DNA of 38,838 nucleotides from the IMG/VR virus record IMGVR_UViG_2718217859_000004, positions 1 to 38,838 of that record; one strand, written 5' to 3'. The notes under the pieces were generated by a model. The model ran no database searches. It was given only the letters and a program-made list of their open reading frames with translations, and was not told the DNA's origin. The stretch comes from a virus (taxonomy: Duplodnaviria; Heunggongvirae; Uroviricota; Caudoviricetes). Positions 1 to 8,438 of this stretch are shown piece after piece; the first letter of the stretch is position 1; each line of letters starts with the position of its first letter. A program made the position numbers and the translations under genes.

Positions 1-183
1 TGCCAGTATCCTTTTTGCGTCGGACGTAAACGGGCCAGCATTGAAGCAATGCATATCTCATTTGATGAATCTGGCTCATGCTTTATCTGACTAATGGCAT
101 CCTCAATAAAGTTTTTATCGCCAGTGATAACGCCAATTTCAAAACGGGTCTCAGGCGTAGTGGAATTGAGTAATAACGTTTCC
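1..183 (-). CDS. dicB: Cell-division inhibitor DicB-like protein, 5' part only (runs off window start)
   Basis: Minus-strand ATG at 181-183 with GAGG 8 nt upstream; translation METLLLNSTTPETRFEIGVITGDKNFIEDAISQIKHEPDSSNEICIASMLARLRPTQKGYW matches my recollection of Qin DicB (MKTLLPNVNTSEGCFEIGV...ICIVSMLARLR). Not in ORF track because truncated. Confidence 0.55.
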
Positions 184-195
184 ATTATCGCGTCC

Positions 196-1047
196 TCAAC
201 GAGTGAATTTAAGTAACTGCTCTACGGTCATATTTTTAATTGCGCCCGGATTTACAAGAGTCCATCCCTGTTTTTCCAGATAAAAGCGGAAGGTATCCAG
301 GGTGCAGACCATTGCGCCGTCAGGAACGGTTTCAGTGAATTCGACATTGCCGAATTTGTCGAAGTGAACAACCAGAGTGCGTCCATCACCCGGAATAATT
401 TTGTCAGCGGGTGGGGTATTATTCTGACGCAGCTCTGCCTCCATGCGGTCGAACTCAGCGATGTAGGCCTCTTTGAATGCGGCGGCTTTTTTGCCGGTGA
501 AGCCCATTACCAGGAAAACGAAGCCGTTTTTTGTGATCTGATATGCGTTATAGGTATTGCCACGGTGCTCAAATTTAACCCGCGAAAAGTTGCTGGTTAA
601 AAAGCGTTCAGAACATTCGAGGGATTCTATTTTTTGAACAACGTGGTGATGTTGCTTGCCAAAGAATTCTGCGATCGCAATAGACGTAGTGACAGCGCGA
701 CCGTTTTCGATGGTTACATCAGGGTGAGAAAGGGTAGGGATAGTAGCCATGATGGCAGCCTCGATAGTCAGTTTAAATAACTCACCACCAAGGTTTTCCA
801 CGACCATAAGGGTGGTGAGACGTACAGGGGTGGAAATACCGGCGACTACCGAAACCGGCCAGCCTTGCGGCTGCCCTGCACGCCCCACCATAATCTGAAT
901 GTGGCTGTGCATTACGCATAAAAAAACCGCCTGAGCGCGGTTATGCGCGGTAATCATCATCGGGTTTCCACGCCCGGCACCCGTTTTATGAGGTGCAGGT
1001 GCACTATAATTCCACCCGTTCTGGTTTTCAATAGCTACATTCAACAT
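196..1047 (-). CDS. Rha-family phage regulatory protein / antirepressor-like
   Basis: 283-aa ORF; residues ~115-200 (VTTSIAIAEFFGKQHHHVVQKIESLECSERFL...) resemble the Rha domain. 99 stop-free codons upstream of the domain argue for the long form; an alternative start is M100 at 748-750 (GAGG upstream). Confidence 0.6.
   Translation of the reverse strand: MLNVAIENQNGWNYSAPAPHKTGAGRGNPMMITAHNRAQAVFLCVMHSHIQIMVGRAGQPQGWPVSVVAGISTPVRLTTLMVVENLGGELFKLTIEAAIMATIPTLSHPDVTIENGRAVTTSIAIAEFFGKQHHHVVQKIESLECSERFLTSNFSRVKFEHRGNTYNAYQITKNGFVFLVMGFTGKKAAAFKEAYIAEFDRMEAELRQNNTPPADKIIPGDGRTLVVHFDKFGNVEFTETVPDGAMVCTLDTFRFYLEKQGWTLVNPGAIKNMTVEQLLKFTR
918..942 (-). terminator. Intrinsic-terminator-like hairpin inside the N-terminal part of the Rha-family ORF
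   Basis: Minus strand reads AACCGC-GCTCAG-GCGGTT followed by TTTTTTT (6-bp stem, 6-nt loop, U7). Confidence 0.35.
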
Positions 1048-1230
1048 TTTCTCTACCTTTCATCACCGAAGTGAACTTTGTTGATGCGGTGCCTGGTGCC
1101 TCCAGGTGACGTTAACCAGTTAACAATTAACGCCGGAGTATTTCACCCATAACCCTGCCACGAAGGACAATAGCTTTTTAACTGTTCCGCGTGCGCTCAG
1201 CCGCATTCACCGCATCACAAAATTCATTTT

Positions 1231-1352
1231 AAAAAGGGCGGACATCAGCCAGCAATGAAACTGATGCCGCCAAAAGGTAATCAACATGGGTTGTTGTAGC
1301 GGGGTTGTCACTCAGGCGTATGGTCAACCTGACAACCCGGTGTCACCAGTGG
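1231..1352 (-). ncRNA. dicF: DicF-like small RNA (3' hairpin plus U-run; 5' boundary uncertain)
   Basis: Minus strand ...CTGGTGAC...TTTTGGCGGCATCAGTTTCATTGCTGGCTGATGTCCGCCCTTTTT resembles recalled DicF (UUUCUGGUGACGUUUGGCGGUAUCAGUUUUACUCCGUGACUGCUCUGCCGCCCUUUUU); position between ydfA-like and dicB-like genes matches Qin order. Confidence 0.4.
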
Positions 1353-1616
1353 GGGTAAGGAAAACCCCGCCATACTTACCGCCGCGCCATTTCGCGGAGT
1401 GCCACAACCGGAAGCGCACGTTCGACGAAAATTTAACGACAGGCTATCTATGAACCATAAACCTCGCCGTGCGCTTTCGCGTTATGCCCTGACTTTTCAG
1501 GGATATATCCTTTCAGTAAACTGTCTGTGCCGGATTCTTATCCGTGTCCGGCGCACGACCACACGTGACAGCGTGTTGGTCTCCATTTTTAACCCAGAAC
1601 CTCAATGGAGGATAAA

Positions 1617-1826
1617 ATGCCAAACAAGCCAATACATCCGCTTATTGAAAAACAGATTGAATGCCTGGTTAATCAACTCAGGCAATCAGGGTTATTAAAA
1701 ACTCATTCAGAGCTAGGGCTCACAGAATCGGCATTCGACGATAAATTAAATAATGCGCTTTATAATGGCATCATTGATTACAATCGTGGCGCTGGTCGCC
1801 GTGGCCCTGCTGGTATAGCTTTGTAA
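1617..1826 (+). CDS. Hypothetical small protein (69 aa)
   Basis: ATG at 1617 with GGAGGA at 1607-1612; MPNKPIHPLIEKQIECLVNQLRQSGLL...; convergent with and abutting the 212-aa minus-strand gene; no family recognised. Confidence 0.4.
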   Translation: MPNKPIHPLIEKQIECLVNQLRQSGLLKTHSELGLTESAFDDKLNNALYNGIIDYNRGAGRRGPAGIAL

Positions 1827-2465
1827 TTACCAGGTAATCCATAGCGGATAGTGTTCAGCATAAATATAGCTATACACATCCAGGTTGTATTTGCGGTCTG
1901 TCCTTAGCAGGTCGCAAATACACGCCGCAGCTTCCAGGGCAGCAGCTTTGTTGCTGAATAACCATGTGGCAACATTCCAGCTATTCTCTGTATCCCATTC
2001 TTTCGCAAGCGCTGACACACTGAAGGAGCCGTTGGTGTTGCCATCAAATAACTCTGTTTCCAGATTTTTAAGTAATGCCTGATGAACGTTTGCCAGGTAT
2101 TCAGTCGGAATTTCGCCACGAATTCGGATAAGGTTGTCATAAACAAACATGTTTCCCGCATATGGCGATTTTTCTTTCTTGTTTTTTAAACCAGCATCAT
2201 GAGCAAACTGATCAATTTCTTCTTCCGTTGGTTTCGTATTGATGTTTTGCGTTATCGTTTCTGCAATGGGCTTTGCTTTATTTTCTACACAATGATTGTT
2301 TGTGAACGAATCTGAATACAGTCCGGTAAAAGAATTGCGGACATGATTTGATAAATTTCTGATGAACACTTTATCTACTAATATCATTGGGTTCCGCGCC
2401 AGTTGCGAGCGAATCACATCAGCGGCCATTTCCTGTATTGATATTGGTAAATCTTTAAATTCCAT
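1827..2465 (-). CDS. Hypothetical protein (212 aa) in the repressor operon
   Basis: Start at 2463-2465 with GAGG 7 nt upstream (alt. 2475-2477 overlapping the ydfA-like stop as ATGA); MEFKDLPISIQEMAADVIRSQLARNPMILVDKVF...; no recognisable domain; sits where ydfB/ydfC lie in Qin. Confidence 0.6.
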   Translation of the reverse strand: MEFKDLPISIQEMAADVIRSQLARNPMILVDKVFIRNLSNHVRNSFTGLYSDSFTNNHCVENKAKPIAETITQNINTKPTEEEIDQFAHDAGLKNKKEKSPYAGNMFVYDNLIRIRGEIPTEYLANVHQALLKNLETELFDGNTNGSFSVSALAKEWDTENSWNVATWLFSNKAAALEAAACICDLLRTDRKYNLDVYSYIYAEHYPLWITW

Positions 2466-2476
2466 CGTCAGCCTCA

Positions 2477-2629
2477 TCAGTCAGTGTTTCTTGCTAACCA
2501 GCGACGTGCGCCAGTTTCGGTTTTAAACGTTTTGCTTTTGGTATACGTCATCGCGGTGAACGTACCGTCCTGGTTGGGGAACACGCCACATACCAGAGAT
2601 TCGCTGTTGCCAAGATCGATAGTATCCAT
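2477..2629 (-). CDS. YdfA-like small protein (DUF1391-like, 50 aa)
   Basis: MDTIDLGNSESLVCGVFPNQDGTFTAMTYTKSKTFKTETGARRWLARNTD; GAGG 6 nt upstream of ATG at 2627-2629; immediately downstream of the dicA-like gene as ydfA is in Qin. Confidence 0.6.
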   Translation of the reverse strand: MDTIDLGNSESLVCGVFPNQDGTFTAMTYTKSKTFKTETGARRWLARNTD

Positions 2630-2833
2630 GCTGACCTCATTTCCCCTTAACGCCGGGGTAGCGGAACTGTTTGCTGAGAACACCGTGCGGTGTCTTGATG
2701 AGTAGAATTTAGAATAACCTAAGAATGCTGGTCAAGCTTTTTATGTAGAAAAACCTAAGTTTCTTGATGTGAAAAACACAAGTATTTGAAAGTTTGTGCT
2801 TTTTATTACAGAGAGTGGCGAAAAAAGGGGGGG

Positions 2834-3241
2834 TTATTTATTTGCGCTTCTTTTGCGAGCTTTGAGTAGTTCTTCAAAAAGTTTGTTGAAATTCTCAACT
2901 CGAGCACGCATCTCTGACAACAGAGCCTTTTGCTCTGACTCAGGCAGTGCGTCGAACAGTTGAAGCAACTCTTTTTGATCTTCTGTCAGATTGACTGGCT
3001 GATTATCTGGGATCGGTTCGCCTGGTTGCTTATCTTCATCTCCAAAAAGAAGCCAAGTCGGCGAGCACTGAAGCGCCTGGCTCAGTGCGAATAATCTCTT
3101 CCCCGCTGGCTGTGTTTCATCTCTTTCCCATTGAGAGATTGTTACGTGAGCCACTTTGACCAGCTTACCTAATGCGGCCTGAGACAGTTTTAATTTTTTA
3201 CGCCTATATAAGAGGCGAGCACCGAAGGTTTCGTTTTTCAT
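2834..3241 (-). CDS. dicA: HTH XRE-family prophage repressor, DicA-like (135 aa)
   Basis: N-terminal HTH (LKLSQAALGKLVKVAHVTISQWERDETQPAGKRLFALSQAL), C-terminal ...MRARVENFNKLFEELLKARKR; same length as DicA; divergent from a cro-like gene. Confidence 0.85.
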   Translation of the reverse strand: MKNETFGARLLYRRKKLKLSQAALGKLVKVAHVTISQWERDETQPAGKRLFALSQALQCSPTWLLFGDEDKQPGEPIPDNQPVNLTEDQKELLQLFDALPESEQKALLSEMRARVENFNKLFEELLKARKRSANK

Positions 3242-3317
3242 ATTAGGTAATTCTAATTTTTCTTGACTTAGGTTTCTCTACGATCTAGTTTCCTTAGGAA
3301 AATCTAAGGAGTTCGAT
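3242..3317. promoter_or_regulatory. Divergent promoter/operator region between dicA-like and dicC-like genes
   Basis: Repeated TTAGG/CCTAA half-sites: TTAGgtaattCTAA (3243-3256), TTGACTTAGG (3263-3272), perfect inverted repeat CCTTAG-gaaaat-CTAAGG (3292-3309) overlapping the dicC-like RBS. Confidence 0.6.
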
Positions 3318-3545
3318 ATGTTGAAAATTGATGCTATAGCGTTTTTTGGCAGCAAAACAAAGCTTGCCAATGCCGCAGGAGTTAGGCTGGCAAGCGTTGC
3401 TGCATGGGGGAAACTGGTTCCTGAAGGTCGCGCGATGCGTCTACAGGAGGCATCTGGCGGTGAGCTTCAGTATGATCCCAAAGTTTATGACGAATATCGT
3501 AAGACGAAGCGGGCAGGGCGGTTGAACAATGAAAATCACTCCTGA
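3318..3545 (+). CDS. dicC: Cro-like regulator, DicC/YdaS-like (75 aa)
   Basis: MLKIDAIAFFGSKTKLANAAGVRLASVAAWGKLVPEGRAMRLQEASGGELQYD...; AAGGAG RBS; divergent from repressor. Confidence 0.8.
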   Translation: MLKIDAIAFFGSKTKLANAAGVRLASVAAWGKLVPEGRAMRLQEASGGELQYDPKVYDEYRKTKRAGRLNNENHS

Positions 3546-4080
3546 ACAGGCTCGTGAGGCTCTGGATGCCTGGATATGTCGACCAGGTATGACACAGGAG
3601 CGGGCGACGATATTAATCACTGAAGCATTCTGGGCTATGAAAGAACGCCCGAACATCGATGTTCAGCGTGTCACATCTGAAGGTGGCGCGGTTGATCAGC
3701 GAGCGCTTGGCGTTAATCGAGTGAAGATATTCGAACGCTGGAAGGCTATCGACACTAGGGATAAGCGTGAAAAGTTCACAGCGCTAGTGCCTGCAATTAT
3801 GGAGGCTATCCGGATTAGTGATTTCAGGTTGTATCGTGAGATCAGTGATGGAAAAAGTATTACGTATATGATCGCCGGGTTAAACAAAGAATATGGCGAT
3901 GTGGTGGAGTCCGGGCTGCTTTTTGCGGATCCAGCTGTTGTGGAACGTGAGACTGACGAGCTTATAGAAAAAGCTATTGCTTTCAAGCACGCGTATCGTC
4001 AGCAATACCAATATTACTTTGCAGATAAACAAATGTCTGCCAGGAGTTCGTATGAGTATCGATGCACTACGATGGGCTAA
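3529..4080 (+). CDS. YdaT-like / CII-like regulatory protein (183 aa), family assignment tentative
   Basis: ATG at 3529 overlapping the dicC-like 3' end; position after cro matches ydaS-ydaT order in Rac-type prophages; sequence match not verifiable here. Confidence 0.4.
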   Translation: MKITPEQAREALDAWICRPGMTQERATILITEAFWAMKERPNIDVQRVTSEGGAVDQRALGVNRVKIFERWKAIDTRDKREKFTALVPAIMEAIRISDFRLYREISDGKSITYMIAGLNKEYGDVVESGLLFADPAVVERETDELIEKAIAFKHAYRQQYQYYFADKQMSARSSYEYRCTTMG

Positions 4081-5092
4081 AAAGGTGAAAACCGGCAGTT
4101 CATCCAGTAAGTCAGTATTGACCTGGCTTGCTGATATGTGCGGTGCCGATTTGTGTGCATACCCGTCTGTATCTGCACTGGCAGAAGTAACGGAACTGAA
4201 CAAAAAGACTGTGCAGGACAGCTTACGACACCTGATGGAGATTGGGTTAATTGTTGATACCGGTGAGAGAAAAGGCCGAACAAAGCAAATTGTGGTGTAC
4301 CGACTTATCGGTGTTGAAGAAAGTGTTGCCGAGCCTGAATACCCCCAAAAACGGGGGGCTTTAAAGGTGGGTAAAATTGGTACTGTTAATAAGAACAGTA
4401 CTGAAAATGGTTATGTTTCAGCACAAAACAGACCCAAAAACGGAACTCTTAGATGCATGGAAAATAACCAAAGACACCCAAATTTTCCATCAAAGACACC
4501 CAAAAACGGATCACGGAACCCAAAGGAACCCAAAGATCTAAACCCCACACATAACTCACGCGAGAGTGCTCCGACCTGTGAGCAGGAAGTTTTGTCGTTA
4601 CAGGCTGCACCCCCTGTATTCCTGGATGGCCTGAGCGAACCCATCGGAAAATTTCCGATGACCGATAGCTGGTATCCGTCACGGGATTTTCGACGACGGG
4701 CTGCGTTGTGGGGGATAGCTTTGCCGGAGACAGAATTTACACCTGCTGAACTTGCCGCCTTCCGGGACTACTGGGCAGCGGAGGGGAAAGTGTTTACGCA
4801 GATTCAGTGGGAGCAGAAATTCGCCCGTCACGTAAATCACGTCAGGGCGCAGGTTAAACCAGTCAGCAAGGGGGTAAACCATGCAGCAGCACCAGGTGGC
4901 ACCGCATCACGGGCAGTTCAGGAAATTCGGGCAGCACGTGAGCAGTGGGAACGTGAAAACGGATTTATCAGCGACGGAAACGGCCTGGAAGCTGTGGGAA
5001 CTCATGGGGGAGGTTTATTCGAACCGCTGGACCCAGAAGAACGGGGCCGCACCTTCGAAGCTCTGGATTGCACAGATTGGCGCGATGACTGA
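4052..5092 (+). CDS. Replication initiation protein (lambda O-like, HTH / DnaT-like domain)
   Basis: ATG at 4052 with AGGAG at 4043-4047; MSIDALRWAKKVKTGSSSSKSVLTWLADMCGADLCAYPSVSALAEVTELNKKTVQDSLRHLMEIGLIVD... typical of phage replication initiators; 3' end uncertain because of overlap with the P-like ORF. Confidence 0.7.
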   Translation: MSIDALRWAKKVKTGSSSSKSVLTWLADMCGADLCAYPSVSALAEVTELNKKTVQDSLRHLMEIGLIVDTGERKGRTKQIVVYRLIGVEESVAEPEYPQKRGALKVGKIGTVNKNSTENGYVSAQNRPKNGTLRCMENNQRHPNFPSKTPKNGSRNPKEPKDLNPTHNSRESAPTCEQEVLSLQAAPPVFLDGLSEPIGKFPMTDSWYPSRDFRRRAALWGIALPETEFTPAELAAFRDYWAAEGKVFTQIQWEQKFARHVNHVRAQVKPVSKGVNHAAAPGGTASRAVQEIRAAREQWERENGFISDGNGLEAVGTHGGGLFEPLDPEERGRTFEALDCTDWRDD

Positions 5093-5546
5093 GCAGCAAA
5101 TCCGACAGGTCTGCCGCCAGTGCATGGACCGCTGCCGGGCGGGTGAAACATGGCCTCCGGACCTGGCTGAGTTTGTGGCGCTGATTTCGGAAAGCGGAGC
5201 CAATCCATTCGGTCTGACGGTGGATGCTGTGATGGAGGAGTACCGCCGCTGGCGCAATGAGTCCTGGCGATACGACGGAAGTGATAAGTACCCGTGGTCT
5301 CAGCCTGTGCTGTATCACATTTGCCTCGAGATGCGTTCAAAGGGAATTGAGCGCCAGATGACCGAAGGGGAATTAAAACGGCTTGCAGAACGGCAGCTGA
5401 CGAAATGGGCAAAGCATGTTAGTAACGGCCTGAGCGTTCCGCCAGTCCGGCGACAACTGGCGGCACCCAAACGCCCGTCGGGGCCAACGCCAATTGAGTT
5501 GCTGAAACAGGAATATGAACGCCGGAAAGCGGCTGGGTTTGTTTGA
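4881..5546 (+). CDS. Replication protein P family (helicase loader-like)
   Basis: C-terminal half aligns with recalled lambda P (ETWPPDLAEFVAL / PSPGQFVAW; YPWSQPVLYHICLEM / YPWKSNAHYWLVTNL; TEGELKRLAERQL / TDAELRRKAADEL). Strongest RBS (GGGGG) precedes ATG 4881; alternatives 5004 and 5085. Confidence 0.65.
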   Translation: MQQHQVAPHHGQFRKFGQHVSSGNVKTDLSATETAWKLWELMGEVYSNRWTQKNGAAPSKLWIAQIGAMTEQQIRQVCRQCMDRCRAGETWPPDLAEFVALISESGANPFGLTVDAVMEEYRRWRNESWRYDGSDKYPWSQPVLYHICLEMRSKGIERQMTEGELKRLAERQLTKWAKHVSNGLSVPPVRRQLAAPKRPSGPTPIELLKQEYERRKAAGFV

Positions 5547-7987: not shown

Positions 7988-8234
7988 CCGGATGCCGCGC
8001 CAGCGGCATGTAGGGGCAGCTCACAAAACGGAAAAAATTGTACGCTAAGCATCGCCTATGGGAATTCCCATATCGGGCGAAAACGGTTTGCTGTAACGGC
8101 AGAGTTAAGTAGAATTGCTGCGGGTGCTTGAGGCTATCTGCCTCGGGCATGAACACCAACGGCAGATAGAGAAAAGCCCCAGTTAACATTACGCGTCCTG
8201 CAAGACGCTTAACATTAATCTGAGGCCATATCTA

Positions 8235-8438
8235 TGCGACACATAGAGATTAGCCTCTTACGGACCGAAAGGTCAAGGAGAAGCAGGCTATGAAGCAGCA
8301 AAAGGCGATGCTAATCGCCCTGATCGTCATCTGTTTAACCGTCTTAGTGACGGCACTGGTAACGAGGAAAGACCTCTGCGAGGTACGAATCCGAACCGGC
8401 CAGACGGAGGTCGCTGTCTTCACAGCTTACGAACCTGA
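8235..8438 (+). CDS. mok-like overlapping reading frame (67 codons) of the hok locus
   Basis: ATG at 8235; ORF overlaps hok in another frame and ends 7 nt before the hok stop, as mok does in hok/sok loci. Confidence 0.4.

Follow-up and report, generated by a model that had tools for sequence, protein, structure and literature searches.

An unstudied gene and its convergent small neighbour in a variable slot of a predicted dicBF-type early operon of a lambdoid prophage

Results and Discussion

The window analysed here comprises 38,838 nucleotides (nt), positions 1 to 38,838 of the IMG/VR virus record IMGVR_UViG_2718217859_000004 (Caudoviricetes), and carries on its minus strand, at 1827-2465, a gene for a protein of 212 amino acids (aa). 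The explanation that we favour as a whole, tentatively and at somewhat less than an even chance, is that this is a selected gene in a repressed dicBF early operon, that its product is modular, and that it forms a cognate pair with a convergent gene of 69 aa, the two belonging to opposite prophage states. An original prediction, made from the letters of the window, had described an exclusion or defence gene co-expressed with the prophage repressor. The gene and its conflict-prone position are upheld by our analysis, and the co-expression with the repressor is not.

An intact gene under purifying selection

The minus-strand open reading frame (ORF) at 1827-2477 is intact, with its stop codon at 1827-1829, and counts 216 aa from its first ATG (2477). 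The second ATG (2465-2463) gives 212 aa and is preceded, at a spacing of 6 nt, by the sequence GAGG; the translation start region (2466-2477, minus strand) thus holds this Shine-Dalgarno sequence (2474-2471) and the alternative ATG (2475-2477). The start context TGATGAGG(C/T)TGAC(G/T)ATGGAATTT was also found in relatives of the gene. The PHROG 2151 profile matched over its full length (E 1.8e-100), residues 5-216 of the long reading being aligned with profile positions 1-212 of 212, and about 130 homologue clusters of 200-214 aa (most of them 208-214 aa) were 65-96% identical to the product. Because the profile begins at residue 5 of the 216-aa reading and most homologues have 208-214 aa, the ATG at 2465 is the likely start. 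This bears on the predicted overlap with the stop codon of the upstream ydfA-like gene, which is real for the 216-aa reading alone (TGATG, 2479-2475, one base being shared with TGA) and is lost with the likely start, 12 nt past that stop. Likewise, the span 1827-2629 assigned to the gene does hold it, but covers two genes, the second being the ydfA-like DUF1391 gene (2477-2629).

Related copies were collected from IMG/VR, and in this set of 80 (the window plus 79 loci, referred to by L numbers) the 212-aa ORF is intact in 70. It is also identical and intact in the closest RefSeq genomes. Measured against the commonest allele, the ratio of nonsynonymous to synonymous substitution rates (dN/dS) was 0.17 for the C-terminal domain, 0.37 for the N-terminal domain, where synonymous sites are saturated, and 0.67 for the linker between them. 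The C-terminal half and the adjacent small gene were present in 599 of 5426 complete Escherichia coli genomes (~11%), among them O157:H7 Sakai, whose prophage Sp11 holds both genes as ECs_2211 and ECs_2212. To judge by these sequence comparisons, the 212-aa ORF is a genuine gene under purifying selection, and it belongs to a family that already existed, ECs_2211/PHROG 2151, and had gone unstudied: a literature search on ECs_2211, ECs_2212 and DUF1391 found no relevant paper. The existence of the gene, as originally proposed, is therefore confirmed by the intact frame, the family match, its maintenance among relatives and the low dN/dS.

Current annotation treats the gene inconsistently. In two relatives the Prokaryotic Genome Annotation Pipeline (PGAP) calls the C-terminal 172 codons of the intact gene a "partial pseudogene, missing N-terminus" (L001 6757-7272, NZ_CP169309; L002 5841-6356, NZ_CM143725), unlike the O157 genomes, which list a full-length hypothetical protein. 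The pseudogene label was rejected, since the ORF is intact and identical in the genomes so labelled.

The protein had been described as lacking any recognisable domain, and our scans agree: nothing significant was obtained in Pfam, NCBIfam, PADLOC or PDB sequences. The best match in PADLOC-DB 2.0 was PDC-S32 (E 0.012, 13.6 bits), which is not significant, and the 69-aa protein had no match there. Neither this small protein nor the alternative proteins found at the same site gave anything specific in Pfam, NCBIfam and PADLOC scans, and profile searches of PDB sequences with alignments of the 212-aa family and of the small protein returned noise (E >= 0.13). No membrane segment or secretion signal was seen when the 212-aa sequence was read. 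No homology to a housekeeping phage function was found, and the gene is conserved across related prophages.

Operon structure and predicted repression

The ydfA-like gene (2477-2629, minus strand; 50 aa; Pfam DUF1391, E 4.4e-28) is the first cistron of the operon. Upstream of it lies a dicA-like gene (2834-3241, minus strand) for a helix-turn-helix (HTH) repressor of 135 aa (Pfam HTH_3, E 4e-14; 63% identity to K-12 DicA over 131 aa), and the 204 nt that separate its stop codon from the start of the ydfA-like gene harbor a sigma-70-like promoter (2706-2735, minus strand; -35 TTGACC at 2735-2730, 18-nt spacer, -10 TAAATT at 2711-2706). This promoter-like site is equivalent to K-12 dicBp. Its -35 element aligns with the K-12 dicA-ydfA intergenic region, where dicBp is located, and the two sequences hardly differ from the leader to the start of ydfA. 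Two operator-like repeats, TTAGGTWWYTCTA, flank the promoter (2710-2722 and 2746-2758, minus strand). Two further copies (3243-3255 and 3268-3280, plus strand) lie in the intergenic region between the dicA-like gene and a divergent dicC/P22-Cro-like gene (3318-3545, plus strand; Pfam P22_Cro, E 2.5e-13). These are the four matches to the motif in the 38.8-kb window, all beside the dicA-like gene, whereas shuffled sequence gave a mean of 0.1 and never four. The layout is the arrangement of shared left and right (OL/OR-type) operators.

In K-12, dicBp drives a single transcript, ydfABC-dicF-dicB, which DicA represses 22-fold and the antirepressor Rem induces 165-fold (PMC10448788), and the same layout has been recorded in other prophages (PMC5069750). 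Because a promoter with operators precedes the ydfA-like gene and the K-12 homologue is repressed by DicA, the 212-aa gene is placed, on sequence and by analogy with K-12, as the second cistron of a repressed dicBF early operon resembling the left operon (PL) of lambda, outside the operon of the repressor itself. On the minus strand this operon would run from the promoter and operators through the ydfA-like gene, the 212-aa gene, a leader and a DicF-like small RNA (sRNA) with a terminator to DicB. Given the K-12 homologue and the operators, the 212-aa gene should be silent in the quiescent lysogen and made upon derepression or infection.

The original prediction had instead placed the gene on the transcript of the dicA-like repressor and its expression in the lysogen, where it would serve exclusion or defence like rexAB or sieB. 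The layout that it described is correct: the gene lies on the same strand as the dicA-like gene, downstream of it and of the ydfA-like gene, and the DicF-like RNA and DicB follow. Moreover, the stretch that leads from the dicA-like gene to the 212-aa gene has no predicted intrinsic terminator, and read-through from the repressor transcript may reach it, a point that counts against its silence in the lysogen. Sites next to repressors often hold exclusion genes, as with lambda rexAB, and DicB of the same operon type is reported to protect K-12 from some phages (PMC6832061). Like the 212-aa gene, rexAB adjoins the immunity repressor on the same strand; however, rexAB shares the PRM transcript of cI and is expressed in the lysogen, whereas here a separate dicBp-like promoter with repressor operators intervenes, so the 212-aa gene should be repressed in that state. 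The PADLOC scan found no match, and a membrane segment typical of exclusion proteins is lacking. Expression of the gene as part of the repressor operon, with an exclusion role in the lysogen, is thus quite improbable.

In lambda, the precedent to be cited is therefore not rexAB but the early-left (PL) operon with ral, kil and cIII. The genes ral, sieB, kil and cIII are also small, non-essential and mosaic, and stand under a repressor-controlled early promoter beside the immunity region. They differ from the 212-aa gene in that no sequence or fold similarity exists, and in that the latter has a two-domain product and a linked gene on the other strand.

The gene had also been thought to sit where the Qin prophage of K-12 carries ydfB and ydfC. 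Three relatives (L002, L010 and L018) have ydfA, ydfB and ydfC followed by this gene, and the same order, ending in a gene of its type, is seen in L096 and phage PPompW. Since ydfB and ydfC are present together with a gene of this type, the gene occupies, by comparison of these sequences, an additional slot between ydfC and dicF and is not a substitute for ydfB/ydfC. The K-12 Qin operon (ydfA-ydfB-ydfC-dicF-dicB-ydfD, with dicBp and DicA) is otherwise the closest known system. The window resembles it in the DicA-type repressor, the divergent DicC/Cro-like gene, the promoter and leader that align with dicBp, ydfA, a DicF-type RNA with terminator, and DicB (54% identity). Unlike the window, K-12 has no gene at the slot. 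The window, in turn, has neither ydfB nor ydfC; between ydfA and the dicF leader stand the 212-aa gene and its convergent neighbour of 69 aa. The DicF of the window is divergent (34 bits), and a module of isrK, C4 and Ash/Rha is inserted before dicB.

A modular protein with a newly recognised C-terminal domain

Domain mapping by profile search against 1.84 billion representative proteins divided the product into an N-terminal domain (aa 1-57; 2295-2465, minus strand), a poorly conserved linker (aa 58-97; 2175-2294, minus strand) and a C-terminal alpha/beta domain, hereafter the C-domain (aa 98-212; 1830-2174, minus strand). The first ~55 residues (MEFKDLP...NVRDAFTGLY) are shared by small enterobacterial proteins of more than 40 clusters, whose tails are unrelated. 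For the C-terminal ~110 residues, that search gave no matches beyond the E. coli family and the two Salmonella clusters P0137 and P0150. Further searching brought ~16 Salmonella clusters that carry the C-domain joined to another N-terminal domain (MFNVKRNG...), with a DicA-like HTH between the two in some proteins and absent in others. The E. coli and Salmonella C-domains are 31-34% identical. Among 50,697 deposited phage genomes, tblastn turned up the N-terminal domain alone (PPompW and Stx2a phages), and a scan of 185,579 species-representative genomes gave no relative of either the C-domain or the 69-aa protein. As these searches delimit it, the C-domain is a newly recognised protein domain, restricted to Escherichia and Salmonella prophages. 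A YdfC-like N-terminus was also considered and rejected; K-12 YdfC has no evident similarity on inspection, and ydfC coexists with the gene in relatives.

In the alignment of both groups, the invariant positions of the C-domain include P, M, Y, I.I.G.IP..Y, FDG..NG.F, A.W.F and A.E, with no residues of catalytic type among them. An AlphaFold2 (AF2) model of the C-domain, built with both groups in the alignment, reached a mean predicted local distance difference test (pLDDT) of 77 and a predicted template modelling score (pTM) of 0.71. In this model the elements follow the order strand-strand-helix-strand-strand-helix-strand and form an alpha/beta sandwich of predicted ferredoxin/ACT-like type. 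The full-length model is poor (pLDDT 56), with the N-terminal part helical at low confidence and the linker likewise of low confidence. In its modelled fold the C-domain may recall the ACT and other ferredoxin-like regulatory domains, such as those of aspartokinase (ACT) and the C-terminal domain of ArgR, with no match at the level of sequence profiles; for Pfam ACT the protein had none at E <= 0.1.

This likeness raises the question of a regulator of the lysis-lysogeny switch, with an ACT-like C-domain that senses or oligomerises. In P0137-type proteins the C-domain is directly preceded by a DicA-like HTH (NCBIfam PRK09706, E 1.9e-11; Pfam HTH_3), and the gene is always one to three genes from the immunity switch. 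As the E. coli protein has no HTH, it would have to modulate a repressor or activator through protein contacts, possibly in the role of an anti-repressor or dominant-negative partner. However, the HTH is optional, being absent from P0150-type and stand-alone forms, and it belongs to a resident Salmonella gene with a swapped tail (P0218 has the same HTH and another tail). Furthermore, the fold scores are within the range of any ferredoxin-like sandwich, and Pfam ACT is not matched. We consider a switch regulator improbable. In the explanation that we favour, the C-domain would be, with low confidence, a non-enzymatic binding module with the 69-aa protein as its cognate partner. A binding role is a guess, which leans on the missing invariant residues of catalytic type, and this should be counted among the points that weigh against that explanation.

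The convergent 69-aa gene

The 69-aa gene (1617-1826, plus strand; ECs_2212 in Sakai; PHROG 4274, E 2.3e-42) runs towards the 212-aa gene, and its stop codon (1824-1826) abuts that of the latter (1826/1827). With a dN/dS of 0.23, it is also under purifying selection. By tblastn it was found directly downstream of the C-domain in 74 of the 79 IMG/VR loci; in the remaining loci, contig ends, one truncated copy or replacement by another convergent gene account for its absence. In a separate tally, 76 of the IMG/VR loci were scored and both genes were intact in 61.

The association extends to Salmonella, where the C-domain genes come after an integrase, a repressor and a Cox-like gene and face convergent ORFs of 64-69 aa. 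There the 3' ends overlap by 11-53 nt, and the small proteins are 36-52% identical to that of the window. Convergent pairs were seen in the Salmonella loci L004-L007 and L098-L100. In L098-L100 the C-domain stands alone (~126 aa) behind the same start context; opposite it lies a 69-aa gene of 84% identity, and the two stops abut. The C-domain and the small gene are thus found together behind three kinds of N-terminus: the E. coli domain, the Salmonella domain with or without HTH, and none. Because the N-terminal partner changes or vanishes in the Salmonella loci, it is the C-domain and the small gene that stay together.

The main rival, which we regard as on the unlikely side and still weightier than the other alternatives, holds the two genes to be independent. 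On this view the 212-aa protein would work by itself as an accessory effector of the early phase, for instance in host takeover or anti-defence like other PL-operon genes, and the 69-aa gene on the opposite strand would be unrelated to it, the two occurring together only because the same recombination arms enclose them. Several observations fit this, and most of them also weigh against a cognate pair. Conserved arms bound the slot, so any exchange swaps both genes at once, and recombination in shared arms could explain part of the co-occurrence, as the right arm, the dicF-like leader, is common even to the Salmonella loci. In three loci (L078, L080 and L086) the 69-aa gene is replaced by a convergent gene for a zinc-ribbon protein of 172-211 aa (PHROG 1244, annotated function unknown), with the large gene intact. 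In eight loci the 5' end of the 69-aa gene is frameshifted in an A-run, and the large gene is intact in six of these. Finally, lambdoid early-left operons are known to store independent accessory genes (lambda ral, kil, cIII and gam). However, C-domain and small gene occur together at 31-52% identity while the left arm and the N-terminal partner differ wholly or vanish, each major allele of the slot has its own convergent partner, and neither family was found without the other in the loci examined.

Two details of these exceptional loci may be recorded. The replacement gene in L080 lies at 4478-5113 (minus strand), and the intact large gene of L078, L080 and L086 ends in ...WIDWFKG. The commonest allele of the 69-aa gene has an A7 run at codons 3-6 (ATGCCAAACAAAAAAAG), which is A6 in L024, L027, L029, L035, L055, L066, L077 and L081; the A6 frameshift could represent phase variation or a homopolymer error of sequencing or assembly.

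The same linkage could be that of a toxin-antitoxin or abortive-infection pair, with the 212-aa protein, or its C-domain, as the toxin and the small protein as the antidote. The two-gene linkage holds across contexts, the operon type is known for toxic products (DicB, DicF and YdfD), and a swappable C-terminal domain with a small neighbour resembles the logic of polymorphic toxins and their immunity proteins. In cassettes such as CdiA-CT/CdiI and Rhs tips, too, a constant N-terminal part is followed by a C-terminal domain that moves with a small neighbour. However, the partner in the window is convergent, the protein is small, and it has no delivery domain and no known toxin tip or immunity family. 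Type II toxin-antitoxin systems differ in the same respect, their genes usually forming a co-directional operon; no toxin or antitoxin family was matched in Pfam, NCBIfam or PADLOC, no catalytic residues are conserved, and the small gene is missing or frameshifted in ~10 loci with an intact large gene. A toxin with its antidote is accordingly a very unlikely description of the pair.

No terminator or stable hairpin was found at the junction of the 212-aa and 69-aa genes (z = -1.0). With no terminator between them, their transcripts must overlap and should antagonise each other. In this the pair would resemble the antisense arrangements of lambda cII/oop and P22 ant/sar, where an opposing transcript close to the immunity region covers the 3' end of an early gene and mutual interference is expected. 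Unlike those transcripts, the opposing one in the window encodes a conserved protein under purifying selection, and no promoter was found for it. The absence of a convincing sigma-70 promoter for the 69-aa gene leaves its expression in the lysogen conjectural and weighs against the cognate pair. If any product of this locus is made in the lysogen, the 69-aa gene is nevertheless a better candidate than the 212-aa gene. In the explanation favoured here, the two would form an accessory pair expressed in opposite prophage states, which we propose with low confidence; for example, a factor made by the lysogen and a neutraliser made early would amount to defence with self-immunity, or, alternatively, one member might buffer an early effector that harms the host.

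A variable slot with constant arms

The conserved untranslated leader that reaches from the cassette to the DicF-like RNA (1287-1616, minus strand) forms the constant right arm of the slot, and was aligned with K-12, Sakai, other alleles and the Salmonella loci. It is kept in every locus, including the Salmonella loci and K-12, which has no gene at the slot. Other alleles (L092, L095, L096, L097, L103, L104 and phage PPompW) keep the N-terminal domain and have a different tail, each facing a different convergent ORF. Thus, a 179-aa protein is combined with an 80-aa zinc-ribbon protein in L092, and a 135-aa with a 77-aa protein in L096 and PPompW. Further alleles combine proteins of 112 and 64 aa and of 129 and ~100 aa, and these two pairs together with the 212/69-aa pair make up nearly all of the 80 sampled loci. 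All convergent genes begin at the same ribosome site (tggaggataaaATG), which abuts the conserved leader, and the partner proteins are either in PHROGs annotated as of unknown function or in none. The cassette is somewhat AT-rich, with a GC content of 37-46% against 49-52% in the flanks. By these alignments the slot is hypervariable: its arms are constant, and the bodies of the two facing genes between them vary. The original claim of a conflict-prone site is consistent with this, since a conserved accessory gene of non-housekeeping type lies at a highly variable slot beside the immunity region.

A bolder extension of the pairing is that dicBF-type early operons of enterobacterial prophages contain a diversity locus that has so far escaped description, in which two facing genes keep constant 5' ends and signals, with the N-terminal domain at one side and the leader and common ribosome site at the other, and the 3' halves are exchanged together as cognate cassettes. 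The 212/69-aa pair would then be one such cassette, made in the lytic and the lysogenic state respectively, and part of a specificity system for phage conflict, such as exclusion with self-immunity. We think this rather unlikely.

Inverted repeats (GCCGGA...TCCGGC and CTCCAT...ATGGAGG; window ~1530-1616, plus strand) are conserved just upstream of the convergent small genes, as in L004, L007, L089 and L098, and CTCCAT...ATGGAGG spans the Shine-Dalgarno sequence of the convergent gene. K-12, geneless there, has a related but different repeat, CTCCAC...GTGGAG, at the same position; as this repeat occurs without a gene, the repeat structure probably also serves the processing of the dicF precursor. 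In addition, the Salmonella enterica locus L098 (GCA_012280615.1) contains tandem cassettes at 3300-4630: a stand-alone C-domain gene opposite a 69-aa gene, followed by a 119-aa N-domain gene opposite a 64-aa gene.

DicF-like RNA, dicB and the remainder of the window

The DicF-like sRNA (1236-1286, minus strand) matched the full Rfam DicF model with 34.1 bits, below the gathering score of 48, and contains a terminator-like hairpin (1241-1268) with a run of T residues behind it. In its 5' part it reads UGUUGAUUACC where the Rfam DicF consensus has UUCUGGUGACA, and owing to this divergence the RNA may have different targets. The DicF copy beside the same cassette in Sakai Sp11 is canonical (75 bits). 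The spacer after the DicF-like RNA (1077-1227, minus strand) gave an Rfam STnc100 match of 42 bits, below the gathering score of 47, and at this spacer the PGAP annotation of a close relative shows a truncated piece of dicB.

The gene dicB, a cell-division inhibitor, is cut by the edge of the window (1-185, minus strand; E 1e-18 for the identity to K-12 DicB given above). Between it and the DicF-like RNA, an ORF at 196-1047 (minus strand) encloses Rfam matches to the C4 antisense RNA (808-895, 79 bits) and to isrK (920-996, 65 bits), both on the minus strand. This long Ash/Rha ORF matches Pfam Phage_ASH at ~720-1008, and because C4 and isrK lie inside this stretch, the same DNA is read both as "Ash" coding sequence and as RNA genes. 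The isrK-C4-Ash/Rha module is present between the DicF-like RNA and dicB in ~6 of the 79 related loci. The dicB piece annotated at the STnc100-like spacer suggests that the Ash/Rha module was inserted into the start of dicB, or duplicated it.

Further along, a sok antitoxin RNA match at 8122-8292 (plus strand; 101 bits, E 5e-22) indicates a hok/sok-type locus. The rest of the window (14000-38838) matches structural genes of lambdoid prophages (terminase, portal, S49 protease and tail fibre), at 97.6% identity to genomes of bovine E. coli. In appearance, the element is a prophage that is complete for the most part, and not a remnant of the Qin kind.

Conclusions

DicF and DicB control cell division and metabolism, and DicF affects virulence in enterohaemorrhagic E. 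coli (EHEC). In ~11% of complete E. coli genomes, O157:H7 Sakai among them, an unstudied gene is part of the transcript from which DicF derives, and that transcript runs antisense to a second unstudied gene. What is new here is the recognition of the C-domain, of its obligate-looking partner and of the variable two-gene slot. Annotation is corrected as well, given that PGAP labels intact copies as pseudogenes. The hypervariable cassette of facing genes is a defined and testable candidate for a function in phage conflict or in tuning the switch. If the pair is cognate and specific to prophage states, it would represent a new design among prophage accessory systems, and if such operons do hold a diversity locus, it would be a new kind of phage-encoded recognition module.

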